Shown here piece after piece: positions 11,940 through 54,495 of a DNA stretch of 64,000 nt. Positions within the stretch are counted from its first letter, which is position 1. The number at the start of each line of letters is the position of its first letter. The position numbers and the translations under genes are program-made. Location of the stretch: assembly GCA_012729855.1 (NCBI GenBank), contig JAAYCI010000097.1:12101-76100 (forward strand), read 5' to 3'. The stretch comes from Oscillospiraceae bacterium. Lineage in GTDB: Bacteria > Bacillota > Clostridia > Oscillospirales > Ruminococcaceae. The notes under the pieces are model-generated. The model had not been told where the DNA came from, searched no databases, and worked only from the letters and a program-made list of their open reading frames with translations.

Positions 11940-13298
11940 ATGCAGATCGTGATTGTGGGTGACGGCAAGGTGGGTTTTGCCCTGACCCAGATGCTGATAG
12001 ACGAAGAACACAGCGTGACGGTGGTGGACTCTGACCCCAAGGTGCTGGAGCGCACCCAGGAGGCCTGCGACGCCATGGCCGTGCAGGGGCACGGGGCCTC
12101 GCGCACGGTGCTGCTGGAGGCCGCGGCCGACACCGCCGAGCTGCTGATTGCCGCTACCGACAGCGACGAGGTGAACCTGCTGAGCTGCCTGATAGCCAAA
12201 AAGCTGGGCTGCCAGCAAACCATTGCCCGGGTGCGCAACCCCGAATACGCCGCCGACCTGGCCCTTTTGCGGGACGAAATGGGCCTGACCTTTGCCATTA
12301 ACCCCGAGGAGGCCTGCGCGCGGGAGATTTTCCGGCTGCTGCAGTTCCCCTCGCTGCTGGCGCGCGAGCAGTTTGCCAAGGGCAAGATGGAGATCGTCAA
12401 GCTGAAGGTGCGGGAGGGCTCGCCCTTGGCGGGCGTGCCGCTGTTTAACCTGTACAGCGCCGCCCGCGTGCAGGTGCTGGTGTGCGCGGTAGACCGCGAC
12501 GGCCAGGTGATTATACCCAACGGCAGCTTTGTGCTGCAGCAGGGGGACGATATTTTTGTAACGGCCGCGGTGGAGGACCTGACCGCCCTTTTGAAAAACC
12601 TGGGCATTGTTACCCGCAAAACCACCCAGGTAACGCTGGTGGGCGGCAGCCGCCTGGCGCTGTACCTGGCCCGGCTGCTGCTGCGCAGCGGCATGGGGGT
12701 GAAGATTATTGAGGTGAACCCCGAGCGCTGCCATTACCTGAGCGAGGTACTGCCCGCCGCCGACATTGTGGAGGGCGACGGCACCGCGCAGGAGGTGCTG
12801 CTGGCCGAAGGGGTGGAGCGCAGCGACGCGCTGGTGGCCCTTACGGGCATTGACGAGGAGAACATTGTATTGTCCATGTTCGCGCGCAACATGGGCATGC
12901 AAACCACCATTACCAAATGCAACCGCAGCCAGTACACGGTGATGTTCAACAAAATGGGCATTGATACCGTGGTGAGCCCCAAGATAACCATAGCCGAGGA
13001 GATTGTGCGCTATGTGCGCGCGCTGGACAACTCGGTGGGCAGCGCCATGATTACCCTGCACCAGATTGCCGGCGGCAAGGCCGAGGCGCTGGAGTTTGAG
13101 GCCGACCAAAACTCCCGGGTGCTGGATATCCCGCTGACCACGCTGGAGCTGAAGCCCGGCATCCTGATTGCCGGCATCTCCCGCGGCATGAAGACCATCA
13201 TTCCCAGGGGCGACTCGGTCATCCGTGACGGCGACTCGGTGGTGGTGGTTACGGCGGCCGACCGCCGCATTTATACCCTAGACGATATTCTGGCCTGA
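11940..13298 (+). CDS. trkA: Trk system potassium uptake protein TrkA (double RCK)
   Basis: 452 aa. MQIVIVGDGKVG is a Rossmann motif, repeated in the second half (VTLVGGSRLA). Confidence 0.92.
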   Translation: MQIVIVGDGKVGFALTQMLIDEEHSVTVVDSDPKVLERTQEACDAMAVQGHGASRTVLLEAAADTAELLIAATDSDEVNLLSCLIAKKLGCQQTIARVRNPEYAADLALLRDEMGLTFAINPEEACAREIFRLLQFPSLLAREQFAKGKMEIVKLKVREGSPLAGVPLFNLYSAARVQVLVCAVDRDGQVIIPNGSFVLQQGDDIFVTAAVEDLTALLKNLGIVTRKTTQVTLVGGSRLALYLARLLLRSGMGVKIIEVNPERCHYLSEVLPAADIVEGDGTAQEVLLAEGVERSDALVALTGIDEENIVLSMFARNMGMQTTITKCNRSQYTVMFNKMGIDTVVSPKITIAEEIVRYVRALDNSVGSAMITLHQIAGGKAEALEFEADQNSRVLDIPLTTLELKPGILIAGISRGMKTIIPRGDSVIRDGDSVVVVTAADRRIYTLDDILA

Positions 13299-13540
13299 CG
13301 GCGTGGCCGGGCCTGCCAAACGGCAGCGGGCCCGGCGGCTGCGGCCCTGTTTCCTTTTATACCCAGCATAATAATTTAAACACGTGGCATTCGCCGCCGG
13401 GCACGCCCCTGGGTGTGCCCGGGTGCCATGCATACGAATCACCGCGTGGGTACGCGGCGGGCGGGTGGTATCTGTCTGGTTTAAAGCGGTATGCTTTTAA
13501 ATGTGATTCAGTCTGCCCCCCGCTGTGAGGTGTAAGCACA

Positions 13541-14995
13541 TTGAATTTAAAGTCCGCCGGCAAGTTCCTCGGCTTTTTGATAAGCGCCGAGGCGGTTTTT
13601 TTGTTGCCGCCGCTGTTTGTGGCGCTGGGCTATGGGGAGGTGCCGGAGGCGCTGTCGTTTTTGGCCACCGCCATTATTTGCGGGGCGGTGGGCGGTGGGC
13701 TGGTGCTGCTGTGCCGCAAGCCCTAGCCCGGCGTATACGCCCGCGAGGCCTTTGTGGTGGCCGGCGCCGGCTGGATACTGGTAAGCCTGCTGGGCGCCCT
13801 GCCCTTTGTGATGAGCGGCGAGATTCCCAGCTACATCGACGCCTTTTTTGAGTCCGTAGCCGGATTCACCACCACCGGCACCTTCGCGTTGTCCGATATC
13901 GAGCTGTGGAGCCGCTCGATGCTGTTTTGGCGCAACTTTATCCAGTGGCTGGGCGGCATAGGCGTGCTGGCCTTTGTGGTGGCGCTGATGGGCTCTAAAA
14001 ACGGGGGGTTTGGCATGCACCTGCTGCGGGCCGAAAGCCCGGGCCCGCGCATGGGCAAGCTGGCGCCCAAAACCCGCCGCAGCGTGCATTATATTTATAT
14101 CGTGTACATCAGTCTTTCAGCCATATGCCTGGGGCTGCTGCTGGCCGGCGGCATGCCCACCTACGAGGCCTTTTGCACCATGTTTGGCGTGGCCGGCACC
14201 GGCGGCTTTGGCGTGCTGAACGACAGCATGGCCAGCTATTCTTCCTACCTGCAAACGGTGTGCACCATTTTTATGCTGCTGTTTGGCGTGAACTTTATTT
14301 TATACCCCCTGCTGCTGCGAAAAGAGTGGCGCAGCGTGCTGAAGGACGAGGAGCTGCGCCTGTACGCGGCCGTGGTGGCGGGGTCCATCGCCGTCATCAC
14401 CGGCGCGCTGCTGGTGGCGGGCCTGGGCGGGGTGGGCGACAGCCTGCATAATGCTTCTTTTATGGTCAGCTCGGTCATTACCAGCACGGGCATGTTTATT
14501 GGCGATTATGCCCACTGGCCGGCGCTGGCGCGCTCGCTGCTATTTCTGCTGATGATTGTGGGGGCGATGGGCGGCAGCACGGCCAGCGGGCTGAAGCTTT
14601 CCCGCGTGCTGATTTTGTTCCGCAGCCTGAAGGCCGGGCTGCACCGCCTGCTGCACCCCCGCAGCGTGAAAAAGGTGCACCTGAACGGCAAGCCGCTGAG
14701 CGACGAGGTTGTGGGCCGCACCCAGATGTTCTTTTTTCTCTACTGCGCGTTCATTATGGTGGCGTCGCTGCTGATAGCCGTGGACGGCCAGGCGCTGGAG
14801 ATAAACCTTTCGGCGGTGATGGCCTGCATCAACAACGTGGGCCCCGGGTTCGGGCTGGTAAGCTCTGTCTCCCATTTTGGCGATTTTTCGGTTTTCTCCA
14901 AGTTCATACTGGCCATCATGATGCTGGTGGGCCGTTTGGAGATTTTCCCCATTTTGATTTTATTCACGCCGTCTACCTGGCGGCGCAAAACCTGA
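13541..14995 (+). pseudogene. trkH: TrkH family K+ transporter, copy 1, interrupted by an in-frame TAG at codon 62
   Basis: ORFs 13541-13726 and 13754-14995 share one frame and are separated only by TAG 13724-13726. Read through the stop, the sequence aligns end to end with the adjacent trkH copy. Confidence 0.6.
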
Positions 14996-15059
14996 GCGGC
15001 TTCGGCCGGGAGGTGCTTTTATCAACTACCGTGTAACATCAAAATACCTGGGCCTGCTT

Positions 15060-16484
15060 TTGTGGGTGGAGGCGGTGCTGATACTGCCGTCGGCCGCGGT
15101 GGCGCTGGGCCACGGCGAAACCCATGGGGTGCTGGCGCTGCTGGCTACGGCGGCCATTTGCGCGCTTTTGGGGCTGCTGCTGTTTCTTTTGGGGCGCGCG
15201 CGGCAGGAAAAACAGGTGCTGTACGCCCGTGAAAGCCTGGTGGTGGCCGGCGCCGGCTGGATATTGGTGAGCCTGCTGGGCGCCCTGCCGTTTTTCCTTA
15301 GCGGGGAGATCCCCAATTATATCGACGCGTTTTTTGAGGCGGCGTCTGGTTTTACCACCACAGGCGCCTCCATTTTAAGCAATGTGGAGGCCATGAGCCG
15401 GGGGCTGCTGTTCTGGCGCAGCTTCACCCACTGGATGGGCGGTATTGGCGTTCTGGTGTTTATTCTGGCGCTGGTGCGCAACCAAAATGGCGGCGGGTTT
15501 ACCCTGCACCTGCTGCGCGCCGAAAGCCCGGGGCCGCAGGTGGGCAAGCTGGCCCCGCGCATGCGGCAGTCGGTGCAGCTGCTGCTGGGGGTGTACCTGG
15601 CGCTGTCGGTGGTCAACCTGGTGTTTCTGCTGGCGGGGGGCATGCCGCTGTTTGACGCGCTTTGCACCATGTTTGGCACGGCGGGCACGGGTGGGTTTGG
15701 CATTAAAAACAGCAGCATGGCGGGCTATTCGCCCTACCTGCAAACGGTTACCACTGTTTTTATGGCGCTGTTTGGCGTGAACTTCACGCTGTATTACCTG
15801 CTGGTGCGCAAGCAGTGGCGCGGGGCGCTGAAGGATGAGGAACTGCGCCTGTATGTGGGCATCATGCTGGGCAGCATCGTGCTCATCATGCTGTCGGTGC
15901 TTACGTCGGGCCAGCTGCCGTTTGGCGAGGCGCTGCACCACAGTGCCTTCACGGTAAGCTCGGTGATGACCACCACCGGCTTCGCCACCATCGACTTTGA
16001 CCTGTGGCCGGAGTTCAGCCGCGCCATATTGCTGATATTGATGTTTGCCGGCTCAATGGCGGGGTCCACCGGCGGCGGCATTAAAACGGCGCGGCTGCTT
16101 ATTTTATGGAAAAGCGCGCGGGCCGGCGTGCGCCGCATGCTGCACCCCCGCAGCGTGAAGGCCGTGCACATAAACGGCCGCCCGCTGGACGACGCCGTGG
16201 TGAAGCGCACCCACCAGTATCTGGTGATCTATTGCGGGCTGACGCTGCTGGGCTTTGCCGTGGTGGCGCTGGACGGCCACACCCTGGAGACCAACATTTC
16301 GGCCGTGGCCTCGTGCCTGAACAACATTGGCCCCGGGCTGGGGCTGGTGGGGCCCAGCGCCAACTACAGCATTTACTCGGGGCTTTCCAAAGTGGTGCTG
16401 ACGCTATATATGCTGGTGGGCCGGCTGGAGATTTTTCCCATTTTGATTTTGTTCGCGCCCTCCACCTGGCGGCGCAAAGCCTGA
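15060..16484 (+). CDS. trkH: TrkH family K+ transporter, copy 2
   Basis: 474-aa ORF, paralogous to copy 1 along its whole length. The conserved N-terminus continues upstream to an ATC codon at 15021, which is preceded by GGGAGGTG, so the true start is uncertain. Confidence 0.88.
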   Translation: MWVEAVLILPSAAVALGHGETHGVLALLATAAICALLGLLLFLLGRARQEKQVLYARESLVVAGAGWILVSLLGALPFFLSGEIPNYIDAFFEAASGFTTTGASILSNVEAMSRGLLFWRSFTHWMGGIGVLVFILALVRNQNGGGFTLHLLRAESPGPQVGKLAPRMRQSVQLLLGVYLALSVVNLVFLLAGGMPLFDALCTMFGTAGTGGFGIKNSSMAGYSPYLQTVTTVFMALFGVNFTLYYLLVRKQWRGALKDEELRLYVGIMLGSIVLIMLSVLTSGQLPFGEALHHSAFTVSSVMTTTGFATIDFDLWPEFSRAILLILMFAGSMAGSTGGGIKTARLLILWKSARAGVRRMLHPRSVKAVHINGRPLDDAVVKRTHQYLVIYCGLTLLGFAVVALDGHTLETNISAVASCLNNIGPGLGLVGPSANYSIYSGLSKVVLTLYMLVGRLEIFPILILFAPSTWRRKA

Positions 16485-19751: not shown

Positions 19752-19822
19752 TATTTGGTTTTAAATGCCCTTTACATAAATTAAAACAAATAGTTAATAA
19801 ATAGCTTTTAATTGAGGTGACT

Positions 19823-20146
19823 ATGCCAAGTAAGGATGAACTGGAGCTGCTGATTGCCGGGGAGCGGCCGGTAGGAGAGTTTTTGTTTGATGAAGAAAAC
19901 CAGTGTTTTACAACGGACACGGAAGTGATTTATGAGATTATTGAGGCAGCGGAGAATGTGTTCTGTTCGGGGGAATACATTTATTTTGGCGGGTATGCGT
20001 ACAGTATGGAAGATCATGAGAAAAAAACCTGGTTTGGCCCGCTTGAAGCTGTGGCGGAACAGGTAGCGCAAGATTATATAGATGAAAACCATTTTATGGA
20101 TTTCCCGGTGATTTATACCAGCTTTCGGGTTGAGCTGGTGGTGTAA
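19823..20146 (+). CDS. Hypothetical small acidic protein (107 aa) in a low-G+C patch
   Basis: ORF with a GAGG SD. I recognise no family. It is strongly Asp/Glu-rich and visibly lower in G+C than its neighbours. Confidence 0.5.
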   Translation: MPSKDELELLIAGERPVGEFLFDEENQCFTTDTEVIYEIIEAAENVFCSGEYIYFGGYAYSMEDHEKKTWFGPLEAVAEQVAQDYIDENHFMDFPVIYTSFRVELVV

Positions 20147-20151
20147 GGCCC

Positions 20152-20190
20152 AAAACATGGGGCAGCCTTAAAAGGCTGCCCCATGTTTTT
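20152..20190. terminator. Bidirectional terminator between convergent genes
   Basis: AAAACATGGGGCAGCC-TTAAAA-GGCTGCCCCATGTTTT is a perfect 16-bp stem with A/T runs on both sides. Confidence 0.8.
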
Positions 20191-20206: not shown

Positions 20207-23200
20207 TTATTTGGGCTCGTACAAAGCGCCCAGGCGCTGCAGGTAGGCGTAGCGGTCTTTGCTTTGGTCTGCCGCTTCGCTAAACAGCTTGTCGGCGCGG
20301 TCGGGGAAGCTCAGCTTCAGGCTGCTGTAGCGGGTTTCGTTTCCAATAAACTCCAGGTAGTCGCCGGTGGGCTCCTTGCTGTCCAGCGTGAAGGGGTTTT
20401 TGCCCTCGGCTTTTTTGCTGGGGTCGAACCGGAAGTTGAACCAGTAGCCGGCCTGCACAGCCTTTTTCATCTCGCTCTGGCAGTTTACCATGCCGCCCTT
20501 GATGCCGTGCATCTCGCAGGGCGCGTAGCCGATGATGAGGGAGGGGCCGTGGTAGCTCTCGGCCTCGGCAATGGCCTTGATGGTCTGGTTTTGGTCGGCG
20601 CCCATGGCAATTTGGGCCACGTACACATAGCCGTAGGCCATGGCCATCTCGGCCAGGCTTTTTTTGCCAATGTTCTTGCCGGCGGCGGCAAACTGCGCCA
20701 CCTGGCCGGTTTGGCTGGCCTTGCTGGCCTGGCCGCCGGTGTTCGAGTACACCTCGGTGTCAAACACAAAGACGTTTACGTCTTCGCCGCTGGCCAGCAC
20801 GTGGTCCAGCCCGCCGTAGCCAATGTCGTAGGCCCAGCCGTCGCCGCCGAAGATCCACACGCTTTTCTTGGAGAGGTAATCCTTCTCGGCCAAAATCTGC
20901 TCGGCGGTGGCGCAGGCCTCGCACACGCAGTTTTTCACGCCTTTTTCCTTCAGGTTTTTGAAATAGTCCTCCACCTTGCCAATGCGCTCACCAAACTTGT
21001 TTTTGGCAAAATCGGAGTGGACATACTCCAGACCCTCGTCCACGCTCATCACGCCGTCCTGCAGCTGCGCGATATAGGCGGCCGTGGCGGTTTCGTTGGC
21101 CTTGCCGTCATCGAAGGTGTCCAGCCATTTTTGCGCGGCCTCCCGCAGCGGGGGCGTGGTGTCGGCGGCCAGCATCTTTTCCGTCAGGCGCTTCAGGCGG
21201 GCGCGAATGGCCTTTTGGCCCAGGTACATGCCGTAGCCGTTCTCGGCGTTGTCCTCAAACAGGCTGTTGGCCCAGGCGGGGCCCTGGCCATTGCGCTTAC
21301 TGATGGTATAGGGGCTGGTGGCCGCGGGGCCGCCCCAGATGGACGAGCAGCCGGTGGCGTTGCTGATATACATCCGCTCGCCATACAGCTGGGTAACCAG
21401 GCGGGCGTAGGCGGTTTCGGCGCAGCCGGCGCAGCTGCCGCTGAACTCCAGCAGGGGCTGGTTGAACTGGCTGCCCTTCACGCTGGTCTCGCTCATCATG
21501 CCGTCCTTCTTGGAAACGTTGGCCACGCACCAGTCAAACACTTCCTGCTGGGGCAGCTGGCTTTCCTGGCCCTTCATCTCCAGCGCTTTGCCGGGGGCGG
21601 GGCACACCTGGGCGCACACGCCGCAGCCCATGCAGTCCAGCGGGCTGATGGCCTGGGTGAACTGGTACTGGTCCACGTCCTTGCCCTTCATGGTGGCGTG
21701 TTTGAGGGCCCCCGGCGCTCCCGCCATGTCGGCCGCATCCAGCGCGAAGGGGCGGATGGTGGCGTGCGGGCACACATAGGCGCACTGGTTGCACTGGATG
21801 CACTTGTCGGCCTGCCACTCGGGCACGTCCACGGCCACGCCACGTTTTTCGTAGGCGGCGGCGCCCTGCTGGAAGGTGCCGTCGGCGTGCTCAATAAAGG
21901 CGCTCACCGGCACGTCGTCGCCGTAGTTCAGGTTCACCGGCTCCATGATGGTGTGCACCATGGTCTCCAGCTTGGCGCTGCCACCCGCACCAGGCTTTGC
22001 CAGGTACGCCTTCTGGCTGCGGATTTCATCGGCCAGCAGGCAGCCACCGCACTGGCAAATGGTTTTGCCGGCAGCTTTGGCGTCCAGCAGCGCCTCGTAA
22101 ACACCGGGATAATGCTCGTCGCGGTATTCTTTGGTCATCACATTTTCGGCAATGTTGATTGAATAGTCGATGGGGGCGATGCATTCGTCCATCTCGGCGA
22201 TATACGCCTCGGTGGCTTCGGCGTTGGCCGCAGCGTCGTCATAGGTGTCCAGCCACTGTTGGGCAACGGCCTTCAGGTCATCGTGCACGCCGTGCTCCAT
22301 CTGCATCAATTTCTCGGTTTTGGCTTTCAGCTCTGCGCGCACGGCCTCGGCGTCTGCCCGCTTGGCCAGGTAGCCCTTCCGGCTGCGGATATCGTTGGCC
22401 AGCAGGCAGCCGTCGCACTGGCACAGGGTGATGCCCTTTTCCTTGGCTGCCAGCAGGCGCTCCAGCACGCCCGGGTAGTGGGCCTCGCGGTACTCCTTGG
22501 GCATTACATCCTGTGCGATGTGCAGGGAATAGTCCACGTCGGCGATGCACGCGTCCATTTCGGCAATGTAGGCCGCGGTGGCTTCGGCGTTGGCCGCTTC
22601 GTCGTCGTAGGTGTCCAGCCATTTCTGGGCGGCGGCCTTCAGGTCCTCGTGCACGCCGTGCTCAATGCTGATGAGCTTCTCGGTTTTGGCTTTCAGCTGC
22701 GCGCGCATGGCCTCGGGGCTCACACGCTTTTCCAGATAGTGCTTCTCGCTGCGAATTTCGTCGGCCAGCAGGCAGCCGTCGCACTGGCACAGGGTAATGC
22801 CCGCCGCCTTGGCCTTGTACAGGCGCTCCGGCACGCCGGGGTAGTACTTTTCCTGGTACTCCTTGGGCATCACGTTTTCCACAATGTTGATGGAATAGTC
22901 CACATCGGCGATGCACGCGTCCATCTCGGCGATGTAGGCCGCGGTGGCTTCGGCGTTGGCCACGGCGTCGTCATAGGTGTCCAGCCATTTCTGGGCGGCG
23001 GCTTTCAGGTCCTCGTGCACGCCGTGCTCGATGGTGATGAGCTTCTCGGTCTTGCGTTTCAGCCGGGCGCGGGCAGCCTCGGGGCTCTCGTGCCTGGCCT
23101 TGAGGGGCGCGTCCTTCCAGTCGGCGGGAATGTCCAGCTTGACGATGGCGTCCACGCCGGCGTCGATGGCCTTGTAGTTGCTCTGCACAATGGCGTCGCC

Positions 23201-24979
23201 CTTGGCGGCGTAGCTCTTGTAGGCAGCGTCCTTCATGTATTTCACGGCGTCGTCAATGGGGATAACGCCCGACAGCTTGAAGAAGGCGCTTTGCAAAATG
23301 GTGTTGGTGCGCTTGCCCATGCCGATGTCGCGGGCGATGTCGATGGCGTTGACGAGGTAGACCTCCACATTGTTTTCGGCGATGTAACGCTTGGCCTCGC
23401 CGGAGAGGTGGCCGGCCAGCTCCTCGGGTGTCCACTGGGCGCTCACCAAAAACTTGCCGCCGGGCTTCACGTCGCGCACCATTTGCAAGCCCTTGATGAT
23501 GTAGGCCGGGGTGTGGCAGGCCACGAAGTCGGCCTTTTTCACGTAGTAGGGGGCCTTGATGGGCTTGTCGCCAAAGCGCAGGTGGCTGATGGTGACACCG
23601 CCGGTTTTTTTGCTGTCGTACTGGAAGTAGGCCTGCACGTATTTGTCGGTGTGGTCGCCGATGATCTTGATGCTGTTCTTGTTGGCGCCCACGGTGCCGT
23701 CGCCGCCCAGGCCAAAGAACTTGCAGCTGACGGTGCCGGCCGGGGTGGTGTCGGCGCAGTCGTCGCGCAGGGGCAGGCTGAGGTGGGTCACATCGTCGTT
23801 GATGCCGATGGTGAAATTGTTTTTGGGCTGCGCCGCGGCCAGGTTCTCGTACACGGCGAAAATCTGCTGGGGCTGGGTATCCTTGCTGCTCAGGCCGTAG
23901 CGGCCGCCCACCACGGTGGCGTCCACCTTGCCGGCCAGCGCGGCCAGCACGTCGATGTAAAGCGGCTCGCCCAGGGCGCCGGGCTCCTTGGTGCGGTCCA
24001 GCACGGCGATGTTCTTCACGGTTTTGGGCAGGGCTTCGATGAGCTTATCGGCGCAGAAGGGGCGGTAGAGCCGCACCTTGACCAGGCCCACCTTTTCGCC
24101 GGCGGCCATCAGGTAGTCGATGACTTCCTCGGCCACGTCGCAGATGGAGCCCATGGCCACGATGACACGGTCGGCGTCGGGTGCGCCGTAGTAGTTGAAC
24201 AGGCCGTAGCTGGTGCCCAGCTTTTTGTTCACCTCGCCCATGTAGTGCTCCACAATGCCGGGCACGGCGGCGTAGTACTGGTTGGCGGCCTCGCGGTTCT
24301 GGAAGAAGATGTCGGGGTTCTGGTGGCTGCCGCGCATGGTGGGGTGCTGGGGGTTCAGCGCGCGGGCGCGAAAGCCGGCCAAGGCCTCTTGGTCGATCAT
24401 GCCGGCCAGCTCGTCGTAGTCCCAGGTTTCGATTTTTTGGATCTCGTGGCTGGTGCGGAAGCCGTCGAAGAAGTTGAGGAAGGGCACCCGGCTTTTGAGG
24501 GAGGCCAGGTGGGCCACGGGGGTAAGGTCCATCACTTCCTGGGGGTTACTTTCGGCCAGCATGGCAAAGCCGGTTTGGCGGCAGGCGTAAATATCGGAAT
24601 GGTCGCCAAAAATGGAGAGTGCGTGGGTGGCCACCGAGCGGGCCGTGCAGTTGATGACGGCCGGCAGCAGCTCGCCCGCCATTTTGTACATGTTGGGAAT
24701 CATGAGCAGCAGGCCCTGGCTGGCGGTGTAGGTGGTGGTGAGGGCGCCGGCGTTCAAGGACCCGTGCACCGCGCCGGCCGCGCCGGCCTCGCTTTGCAGC
24801 TCGATAACGCTCACTTCGTCGCCAAAGATGTTTTTCAGGCCCTGCGCCGACCAGGTGTCGGTGATTTCGGCCATGGGGGACGACGGCGTGATGGGGTAGA
24901 TGGCGGCAACTTCGGTAAAGGCATAGCTGGCGTGGGCCGCCGCTGTGTTGCCGTCCATGGTTTGTTTGGCTCTGGGCAT
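20207..24979 (-). CDS. nifJ: Pyruvate:ferredoxin (flavodoxin) oxidoreductase, expanded to about 1590 aa
   Basis: Canonical PFOR motifs run throughout: the YPITPSS N-terminus, two CxxCxxCxxxCP ferredoxin motifs, and GGDGWAYDIGYGG (TPP). Start set at ATG 24979 after AGGAGG; the track ORF extends to 25141. Confidence 0.95.
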   Translation of the reverse strand: MPRAKQTMDGNTAAAHASYAFTEVAAIYPITPSSPMAEITDTWSAQGLKNIFGDEVSVIELQSEAGAAGAVHGSLNAGALTTTYTASQGLLLMIPNMYKMAGELLPAVINCTARSVATHALSIFGDHSDIYACRQTGFAMLAESNPQEVMDLTPVAHLASLKSRVPFLNFFDGFRTSHEIQKIETWDYDELAGMIDQEALAGFRARALNPQHPTMRGSHQNPDIFFQNREAANQYYAAVPGIVEHYMGEVNKKLGTSYGLFNYYGAPDADRVIVAMGSICDVAEEVIDYLMAAGEKVGLVKVRLYRPFCADKLIEALPKTVKNIAVLDRTKEPGALGEPLYIDVLAALAGKVDATVVGGRYGLSSKDTQPQQIFAVYENLAAAQPKNNFTIGINDDVTHLSLPLRDDCADTTPAGTVSCKFFGLGGDGTVGANKNSIKIIGDHTDKYVQAYFQYDSKKTGGVTISHLRFGDKPIKAPYYVKKADFVACHTPAYIIKGLQMVRDVKPGGKFLVSAQWTPEELAGHLSGEAKRYIAENNVEVYLVNAIDIARDIGMGKRTNTILQSAFFKLSGVIPIDDAVKYMKDAAYKSYAAKGDAIVQSNYKAIDAGVDAIVKLDIPADWKDAPLKARHESPEAARARLKRKTEKLITIEHGVHEDLKAAAQKWLDTYDDAVANAEATAAYIAEMDACIADVDYSINIVENVMPKEYQEKYYPGVPERLYKAKAAGITLCQCDGCLLADEIRSEKHYLEKRVSPEAMRAQLKAKTEKLISIEHGVHEDLKAAAQKWLDTYDDEAANAEATAAYIAEMDACIADVDYSLHIAQDVMPKEYREAHYPGVLERLLAAKEKGITLCQCDGCLLANDIRSRKGYLAKRADAEAVRAELKAKTEKLMQMEHGVHDDLKAVAQQWLDTYDDAAANAEATEAYIAEMDECIAPIDYSINIAENVMTKEYRDEHYPGVYEALLDAKAAGKTICQCGGCLLADEIRSQKAYLAKPGAGGSAKLETMVHTIMEPVNLNYGDDVPVSAFIEHADGTFQQGAAAYEKRGVAVDVPEWQADKCIQCNQCAYVCPHATIRPFALDAADMAGAPGALKHATMKGKDVDQYQFTQAISPLDCMGCGVCAQVCPAPGKALEMKGQESQLPQQEVFDWCVANVSKKDGMMSETSVKGSQFNQPLLEFSGSCAGCAETAYARLVTQLYGERMYISNATGCSSIWGGPAATSPYTISKRNGQGPAWANSLFEDNAENGYGMYLGQKAIRARLKRLTEKMLAADTTPPLREAAQKWLDTFDDGKANETATAAYIAQLQDGVMSVDEGLEYVHSDFAKNKFGERIGKVEDYFKNLKEKGVKNCVCEACATAEQILAEKDYLSKKSVWIFGGDGWAYDIGYGGLDHVLASGEDVNVFVFDTEVYSNTGGQASKASQTGQVAQFAAAGKNIGKKSLAEMAMAYGYVYVAQIAMGADQNQTIKAIAEAESYHGPSLIIGYAPCEMHGIKGGMVNCQSEMKKAVQAGYWFNFRFDPSKKAEGKNPFTLDSKEPTGDYLEFIGNETRYSSLKLSFPDRADKLFSEAADQSKDRYAYLQRLGALYEPK
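21989..23086 (-). repeat. Three tandem 366-bp (122-aa) coding repeats inside PFOR
   Basis: The anchor GTGCACGCCGTGCTC recurs at 22283, 22649 and 23015, an exact 366-bp period. The peptide repeats are RA.LK.KTEKL...HGVH.DLKA.AQ.WLDTYDD...C(Q)C.GC. Confidence 0.92.
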
Positions 24980-25198
24980 GTGTTTGTCCTCCTGTCGCGT
25001 TTGATGATGCTTTGTTCTCAATACTCTGCCGGTGTTTCGCACTTTTTGAACAAGCTTAAAAACACCATACGCCGCCGCGCATGCGGCGACGCCCCGTTCT
25101 GCCTGCGGAAGCGCTTTGGGCTTCCGCTTGCGCTGTTGCACCGGAACAATAGGGTCACTTTATCGCATCGGCACCCCTCTAAAAGCGCGTTTGAAGTT

Positions 25199-54169: not shown

Positions 54170-54246
54170 GGCGGTATAGCTCAGTTGGCTAGAGCATTCG
54201 GTTCATACCCGAAGAGTCACTGGTTCAAATCCAGTTACCGCTACCA
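54170..54246 (+). tRNA. tRNA-Met (CAT anticodon, elongator type), with encoded CCA
   Basis: Folds as a cloverleaf by hand: acceptor GGCGGTA/TACCGCT, anticodon arm TTCGG-TTCATAC-CCGAA, T arm ACTGG-TTCAAAT-CCAGT. It closely resembles B. subtilis elongator tRNA-Met. tRNA-Ile2 (lysidine) is not formally excluded. Confidence 0.85.
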
Positions 54247-54420: not shown

Positions 54421-54495
54421 GGCCCAATGGTCAAGAGGTTAAGACACCACCCTTTCACGGTGGAATCCCGGGTTCGATTCCCGGTTGGGTCACCA
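54421..54495 (+). tRNA. tRNA-Glu (TTC anticodon), with encoded CCA
   Basis: GGCCCAATGGTCAAGAGGTTAAGACACCACCCTTTCACGGTGGAATCCCGGGTTCGATTCCCGGTTGGGTCACCA. The cloverleaf and its similarity to Bacillus tRNA-Glu are clear. Confidence 0.92.

Follow-up and report, generated by a model that had tools for sequence, protein, structure and literature searches.

The gene for pyruvate:ferredoxin oxidoreductase (PFOR, nifJ type) in a 64,000-nt stretch of contig JAAYCI010000097.1 from an Oscillospiraceae bacterium carries, in the linker between domains III and IV, an in-frame array of three tandem 366-bp units, each homologous to a helical sub-domain that the enzyme also has in its usual place in domain VI. 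That stretch is the window analyzed here; positions are those of the window, and PFOR residues are counted from the ATG at 24979. PFOR is the main pyruvate oxidizer of strict anaerobes, including the gut Oscillospiraceae, and its domain plan is regarded as fixed. We found that the array is a genuine, lineage-specific insertion into a PFOR that is canonical and, by its motifs, catalytically complete. We regard the anatomy of the array and the evolutionary origin proposed for it as well supported, and we put forward a more tentative proposal for what it does.

The open reading frame (ORF) that contains the array runs from 20207 to 25141 on the minus strand, is open throughout and, when read from its ATG, specifies a protein of 1590 amino acids (aa), compared with 1179-1231 aa for its 120 best homologs. 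Tandem Repeats Finder detected the array at 21994-23087 (period 366, 3.0 copies, 80% matches, 1% indels, score 1361), and in frame it is an exact array of 3 x 366 bp, 21989-23086, that adds 366 aa to PFOR. The original prediction, made from the letters of the window, had proposed an oversized PFOR of about 1590 aa translated from an ATG preceded by AGGAGG, an exact threefold 366-bp array and a frame that stays open across the repeats, and all three proposals held. The units are internal to the 1590-aa ORF and have no start or stop codons of their own, and the peptides at the two unit-to-unit junctions are YLEKRVSPEAMR and YLAKRADAEAVR. Each unit has four Cys residues (C58 and C100-x-C102-x-x-C105, numbered within the unit) and two invariant His residues (H21 and H24). 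A hidden Markov model (HMM) of the module found exactly four matches in the 64-kb window, namely, the three inserted units (133-137 bits each) and the native copy (152 bits), and no others.

The host is a complete PFOR, and its domains and cofactor motifs predict that it is catalytically competent. It matched TIGR02176 with 1684 bits (cut-off, 911) in three stretches broken by the insert, and its Pfam domains follow one another in the canonical order (POR_N, aa 18-247; PFOR_II, 269-373; POR, 425-609; EKR, 1005-1049; Fer4, 1052-1128; TPP_enzyme_C, 1370-1482), the sole gap in the series being that from the end of POR to the start of EKR. The M. thermoacetica PFOR structure (PDB 6CIN) aligned to aa 5-628, 1007-1294, and 1363-1582 with 1424 bits. 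The thiamine pyrophosphate (TPP) motif GGDGWAYDIG lies at aa 1378, the two ferredoxin CxxCxxCxxxCP motifs read CIQCNQCAYVCP (aa 1060) and CMGCGVCAQVCP (aa 1116), and the other Cys motifs, among them those with the Cys residues of the proximal cluster, are GSCAGC (aa 1181), ATGCSS (aa 1208), and APCEMH (aa 1486). When the insert is disregarded, identity to the nearest homologs is 81-82%. A pseudogene was ruled out, the frame and all motifs being intact, as was an intein or mobile element, since no such domains are present and the units share their homology with PFOR itself.

Alignment with eight of these homologs showed that the insert replaces nothing and occupies a variable linker of ~10 residues bounded by the conserved IPA(D/E)WK at the end of domain III and ...MV..IMEPVN... 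at the start of domain IV. The exact insertion site is therefore the III/IV linker, which is short, variable, and solvent exposed. In length and linker the protein departs from the norm of single-polypeptide PFORs, having 1590 aa and 366 residues beyond the ~10-residue linker of its orthologs, and the inserted units stand between domains III and IV and not in domain VI between FEDNAE and WIFGGDGW. In the D. africanus enzyme, the III/IV boundary falls at residues ~627/628 (PMC8945911), and in 2-oxoacid:ferredoxin oxidoreductases the domains exposed at the surface are III and V (PMC5020499). The insert had been predicted to follow an IPADWKDAP segment and to lie at the junction with the ferredoxin domain; it does follow that segment, but both the Pfam matches and the homolog alignment place the EKR domain IV between the insert and the ferredoxin domain.

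The three units have diverged substantially from one another. Pairwise DNA identity is 77-83%, protein identity is 80%, 72%, and 70%, and exact runs shared between units reach 33 nt at most (and no more than 23 nt when unit 3 is one of the pair); the unit-to-unit junctions themselves have diverged. GC content overall and at third codon positions is 0.62 and 0.82 in the insert versus 0.63 and 0.88 for the remainder of the gene. By the Nei-Gojobori method, unit pairs differ by 0.43-0.72 synonymous substitutions per site (dS) with a ratio of nonsynonymous to synonymous rates (dN/dS) of 0.27-0.33, from which it follows that the duplications are old and that every copy has been under purifying selection. 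These values bear out the earlier statement that the repeats do not represent a trivial recent duplication. Columns that are invariant across the three units tend toward those conserved in native modules (p = 0.03), and of the 39 native columns with high conservation, 30 do not vary among the three units.

These data also bear on whether the array might be an assembly artefact or a chimera, formed by concatenation of strain variants or by a cycle in the assembly graph, in which case the real gene would have one module or none. It is consistent with such an origin that no second array-bearing sequence turned up in any collection searched. However, because the units differ at 17-23% of their nucleotides and share exact runs of no more than 33 nt, which is too short for cycles at the usual assembly k-mer sizes, repeat-induced assembly cycles are implausible. 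The repeats keep the reading frame with a period of exactly 366 bp, the junctions between them have diverged, the codon composition of the insert matches that of the host gene, and no homolog has even one module at the III/IV site. We consider an artefact extremely improbable.

Each inserted unit is a version of the helical sub-domain of homodimeric PFOR domain VI, which lies between FEDNAE(F/Y)G and WI(F/I)GGDGW and corresponds to residues ~875-955 of M. thermoacetica PFOR and ~875-950 of D. africanus PFOR. An AlphaFold2 (AF2) model of the unit, built from a 55-sequence alignment, has a mean predicted local distance difference test score (pLDDT) of 96.7 and a predicted template modeling score (pTM) of 0.88; it shows seven helices and one beta-bridge, which links residues 61 and 99. 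When this model was compared with the PDB by Foldseek, the only high-probability matches were to PFORs, namely, 6CIN/6CIO (probability, 0.98-1.0; query-normalized template modeling score, 0.43-0.56) and 1B0P (55 columns, 1.6 Å). The E-values of these matches are modest (0.06-0.6) because the solved targets carry short forms of the module. A sequence search of the PDB with one unit gave no match, and neither Pfam nor NCBIfam contained a significant family for the module or its stand-alone homologs. Among PFOR homologs, the native module occurs in forms of ~84, ~107, and ~120 aa (range, ~84-122 aa), and it evolves fast, with 59% identity to the native module of an ortholog that is 82% identical overall. 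When natural homologs were aligned to the array with MAFFT, all of them were placed on unit 3 only.

Both BLAST and distances put the units closest to the native modules of the nearest orthologs (P0157), to which they are 45-49% identical; they are 39% identical to the native module of their own gene and ~30% identical to the stand-alone proteins described below. Altogether, 39 columns are invariant across the three units and the gene's own native module (aa 1250-1369), so that the paralogy with a module in the TPP domain that had been inferred from the letters was confirmed. In a tree of modules, the three units group together with a bootstrap value of 100%, and within this clade units 1 and 2 pair with 78% support. 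We suggest that a native-type module of this PFOR clade was copied into the III/IV linker and then amplified in tandem through two rounds of duplication, with unit 3 splitting off first and units 1 and 2 separating afterward, and that fast divergence followed, all three copies since having been kept folded by purifying selection.

No comparable PFOR was found in any of the collections searched. None of the 120 best PFOR homologs has extra length, and each has one module. A scan of 185,579 species-representative genomes gave 50 loci, each with one module, compared with four in the window; among 1.84 billion representative proteins, none has several copies of the module; and no relative turned up when JGI metagenome contigs were scanned for unit-specific peptides. 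A more generic DNA pattern of two W-L-D-T motifs one unit apart matched at least 120 metagenome loci, and none of those listed encodes the module. A search with the insert plus its flanks returned only PFOR fragments of 525-800 aa with one native module each and seems to have been biased toward targets of the length of the query; it was repeated with the full-length protein, and that search is the basis of the 120-homolog result. Two apparent relatives were rejected. The loci L046 and L047, on Chicken_14_mag_163 contigs, looked like a broken array and are one ordinary PFOR split with an overlap inside the native module, and P0155, with four matched stretches, is an unrelated low-complexity translation. 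No paper was found in the literature on a PFOR with repeated internal modules or on the CxCxxC motif. Within the collections and papers searched, then, the architecture is undescribed, as originally claimed, and triplicated PFORs are not common, none occurring among the 120 homologs or the 50 genome loci.

The module also exists as a protein in its own right. A one-unit search of the 1.84 billion representative proteins gave 36 matches with E <= 0.001, including module-only proteins of ~103-119 aa, and a profile made from the module-only proteins gave 153 matches at the same threshold, nearly all of those listed being 110-130 aa long. Profile-profile comparison (hhalign) of the free-standing and PFOR modules gave a probability of 99.95% and an E-value of 1.9e-37 over the full length. 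The existence of free-standing homologs of the same length indicates that the module folds autonomously. These proteins, which contain no Pfam domain, occur in Clostridia (e.g., P0292, P0330, and P0149; loci L051-L057); one group is encoded next to luxS, and another lies after the gene for a MarR regulator and before that for a glyoxalase. Two of them are named “molecular chaperone Hsp90” in NCBI/nr, which looks like a misnomer, and others are named “hypothetical protein.” In 111 stand-alone proteins, Cys99, Cys101, and Cys104 are 100% conserved and a Cys in the helix 1-2 loop (Cys22) is 93% conserved, and each protein has at least four Cys residues. The stand-alone sequences thus indicate that a four-ligand site may be the ancestral or complete state.

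The same Cys motif is conserved within PFOR. CxCxxC is present in 101 of 101 unique native modules of PFORs from gut and rumen Clostridia and Bacteroidales, with Asp or Glu at position 63 in 98 of the 101. The motif is also found in 46 of 50 modules from genomes of rumen and gut Bacteroidales, Prevotellaceae, and Oscillospiraceae, where at least two of the four exceptions (L046 and L048) are modules truncated where the contig or locus ends. Both solved PFORs, those of M. thermoacetica and D. africanus, have a short module of ~80 aa without Cys at these positions, and so for the motif there is neither a structural nor a biochemical precedent. The inserted units retain C100, C102, C105, and D63 and have gained C58 and an H21-x-x-H24 loop, all of which are invariant in the three copies. 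It had been noted that each unit contains four Cys residues, enough for a metal or Fe-S site. The count is correct, but only the three Cys residues of CxCxxC are invariant in the family; C58 is largely specific to the units, occurring in 5 of the 101 native modules and 24% of the stand-alone proteins. His21 and His24 of the inserted units occupy the loop position of the fourth Cys of the stand-alone proteins. In the AF2 model, C102 caps the N terminus of the last long helix, whose first turn contains C105, a predicted geometry that would be typical both of metal knuckles and of redox-active CxxC motifs, and the beta-bridge between residues 61 and 99 would bring the C58-D63 segment beside C100.

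We propose that each unit forms a site of three Cys residues plus a further Cys, His, or Asp that would hold a metal ion (zinc or an Fe-S species) or serve as a cluster of redox-sensitive thiols. On this view, the array would supply additional accessory modules, tethered at the surface beside the exposed domains III and V and outside the path of electrons from TPP to the clusters, where it could modulate the stability of the enzyme, its oxidative damage, or its interaction with partners. As a description of the whole, a triplication of the enzyme's own metal- or thiol-bearing accessory module, tethered at the surface, is in our judgment probably the best explanation; the accessory mechanism itself is a possibility that we hold only tentatively. 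The broader idea that the CxCxxC module is an unrecognized metal-binding or thiol-redox family, represented in PFOR domain VI, in free-standing proteins, and in the array, and that the array is redox active, serving in oxidant sensing or sacrificial protection or as a set of extra redox centers, seems to us unlikely.

Several observations count against the proposal of a metal- or thiol-bearing accessory array. No metal, redox, or binding function has been demonstrated for the module in any PFOR, and the site has no structural precedent. The fourth Cys is variable among native modules (a loop Cys in 13 of 101 and C58 in 5 of 101), and an unconserved fourth ligand is unusual for a structural zinc site; the predicted clustering of the Cys residues depends on the 61-99 beta-bridge of a model. 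A single-sequence model of the whole array is poor (pLDDT, 52; pTM, 0.25), and the packing of the units cannot be derived from it. The dN/dS ratio of ~0.3 is also to be expected from selection for foldability alone in an essential, abundant enzyme. On the side of origin, the place at which the unit clade attaches, with respect to native and stand-alone modules, has a weak support of 44%, the units being on a long branch (probably long-branch attraction). Finally, the exact 1590-aa protein is absent from the collection searched, and close relatives that share the array may be missing from it too.

The array could alternatively be a tolerated neutral insertion, in which slipped or illegitimate recombination placed a copy of the module in a permissive linker, the copy expanded, and selection has done no more than keep the copies folded and soluble, since misfolding of the insert would harm an essential, abundant enzyme; the array would then contribute no activity. 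The site is indeed a short variable linker in all orthologs, the closest relatives do without the insert, and no conserved genomic partner is evident among neighbors that are housekeeping genes; moreover, a native module that evolves as fast and varies as much in length as this one is not tightly constrained. However, three copies have stayed intact over a dS of 0.4-0.7 with indels of at most 1%, all 12 Cys residues and all 6 loop His residues have been kept, and the pattern of conservation among the units mirrors that of the native modules, whereas a neutral addition of 1.1 kb to a gene with high expression would probably have decayed or been lost. We regard neutrality as rather doubtful. Extra redox or metal centers, a docking array, and a redox switch had been suggested earlier as possible roles, and in the strongest form of that suggestion each unit would carry an Fe-S cluster, which would give the enzyme three extra redox centers (four with the native module) that extend or buffer the electron chain near the ferredoxin domain. 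The invariant Cys3 motif and the conserved Asp63 are compatible with Cys3-Asp or Cys4 ligation, the stand-alone homologs have four conserved Cys residues, and the insertion is immediately upstream of domains IV and V. Nevertheless, Pfam, NCBIfam, and Foldseek searches linked a C-x-C-x-x-C within an all-helical bundle to no Fe-S family, the fourth ligand varies among native modules, the M. thermoacetica and D. africanus PFORs work with a module that lacks the Cys residues, and canonical PFORs require just three clusters (PMC12337175). Domains on flexible linkers would also make a poor fixed electron wire, and we think extra Fe-S centers quite unlikely.

Compared with the canonical homodimeric PFORs of M. 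thermoacetica (6CIN) and D. africanus (1B0P/7PLM), the enzyme has the same domains I-VI in the same order, the same TPP motif, the same Cys ligands of three clusters, and the same helical sub-domain in domain VI; it differs in the 366 extra residues between domains III and IV and in having the long 120-aa CxCxxC form of the native module, whereas theirs is ~80 aa and lacks those Cys residues. The inserted units are homologous over their full length (39-49% identity) to the native domain VI modules of PFORs from gut and rumen Clostridia and Bacteroidales, with the same seven-helix fold, W-L-D motif, CxCxxC, and Asp63, but they lie outside domain VI, in tandem, and have the extra Cys58 and a His-x-x-His loop. 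The free-standing proteins of 110-120 aa are the same domain from end to end with an invariant CxCxxC, but they are single-domain proteins with a helix 1-2 Cys and with gene contexts unrelated to PFOR. Other PFOR fusions, such as pyruvate:NADP+ oxidoreductase, exceed 1200 aa through added domains, in that case a foreign C-terminal flavoprotein reductase. The array, in contrast, is an internal multiplication of the enzyme's own sub-domain and not a foreign C-terminal domain. In function, the nearest parallel may be domain VII of the D. africanus enzyme, a Cys-bearing, lineage-specific element that is described in PMC8945911 (citing Vita et al. 2008) and PMC12337175 as being thought to protect the clusters and to respond to oxidation through a Cys1195-Cys1212 disulfide. 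This is an analogy only and not homology, domain VII being a C-terminal arm with two Cys residues in a disulfide and no CxCxxC helical bundle. Reviews of PFOR architecture describe domains I-VI only, plus domain VII in D. africanus (PMC12337175).

The array shows that the PFOR domain plan can grow when a sub-domain that the enzyme already has is reused at a second site and multiplied, and it illustrates clearly how intragenic domain transposition, with tandem amplification after it, can enlarge a core metabolic enzyme. It also draws attention to a widespread and uncharacterized CxCxxC module that has no family model, is missing from the solved structures, and has free-standing four-Cys relatives. 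Should the site prove to be metal binding or redox active, it would bear on the oxygen sensitivity, regulation, and partner choice of PFOR in gut anaerobes and on nitro-drug activation by the enzyme. The triplicated version would be a convenient handle, with a threefold signal for spectroscopy or for deletion phenotypes.

Table 1. Positions of the PFOR gene, its inserted and native modules, and adjoining features in the window
Feature	Position	Strand	Evidence or remark
Perfect 17-bp hairpin, likely bidirectional terminator	20152-20189		Separates the PFOR stop codon from the convergent ORF 19817-20146 (+)
PFOR (nifJ type), complete coding sequence including the insert	20207-24979	-	TIGR02176, Pfam, PDB 6CIN alignment, cofactor motifs
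Native helical sub-domain of domain VI (aa 1250-1369); CVCEAC at 20912-20929	20873-21232	-	Alignment, module HMM
Domain V, ferredoxin domain; two CxxCxxCxxxCP (aa 1060 and 1116)	21596-21826	-	
Domain IV (Pfam EKR, aa 1005-1049)	21833-21967	-	Directly after the insert
Inserted unit 3 (aa 876-997); CQCGGC at 22040-22057	21989-22354	-	70-72% identical to units 1 and 2; outside the pair of units 1 and 2
Inserted unit 2 (aa 754-875); CQCDGC at 22406-22423	22355-22720	-	Repeat finder, alignment; 80% identical to unit 1
Inserted unit 1 (aa 632-753); CQCDGC at 22772-22789	22721-23086	-	Repeat finder, alignment, AF2 pLDDT 96.7
Domain III (Pfam POR, aa 425-609)	23153-23707	-	Last conserved motif, IPADWKDA, just before the insert
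Shine-Dalgarno sequence AGGAGG, 8 nt 5′ of the ATG at 24979	24988-24993	-	Read from the sequence

The PFOR gene is monocistronic, with a strong hairpin terminator 3′ of the gene. The convergent ORF on the far side of this hairpin encodes 109 aa and has no Pfam match. In the 5′ leader of PFOR, ~90 nt upstream of the start codon, there is a terminator-like hairpin (10-bp stem with 8 G-C pairs) followed by a T-run at 25069-25092 on the minus strand; it may be an attenuator, and it matched no Rfam family at the gathering threshold. The neighbors of PFOR encode housekeeping functions, namely, Trk potassium uptake, a class IV aminotransferase, a NUDIX hydrolase, and GyrA. In the Trk region (11940-16484, plus strand), two TrkH paralogs (13754-14995 and 15060-16484) lie side by side after a TrkA gene. 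At the gathering threshold, Rfam matched only two tRNA genes in the window, at 54170-54243 and 54421-54492 on the plus strand.

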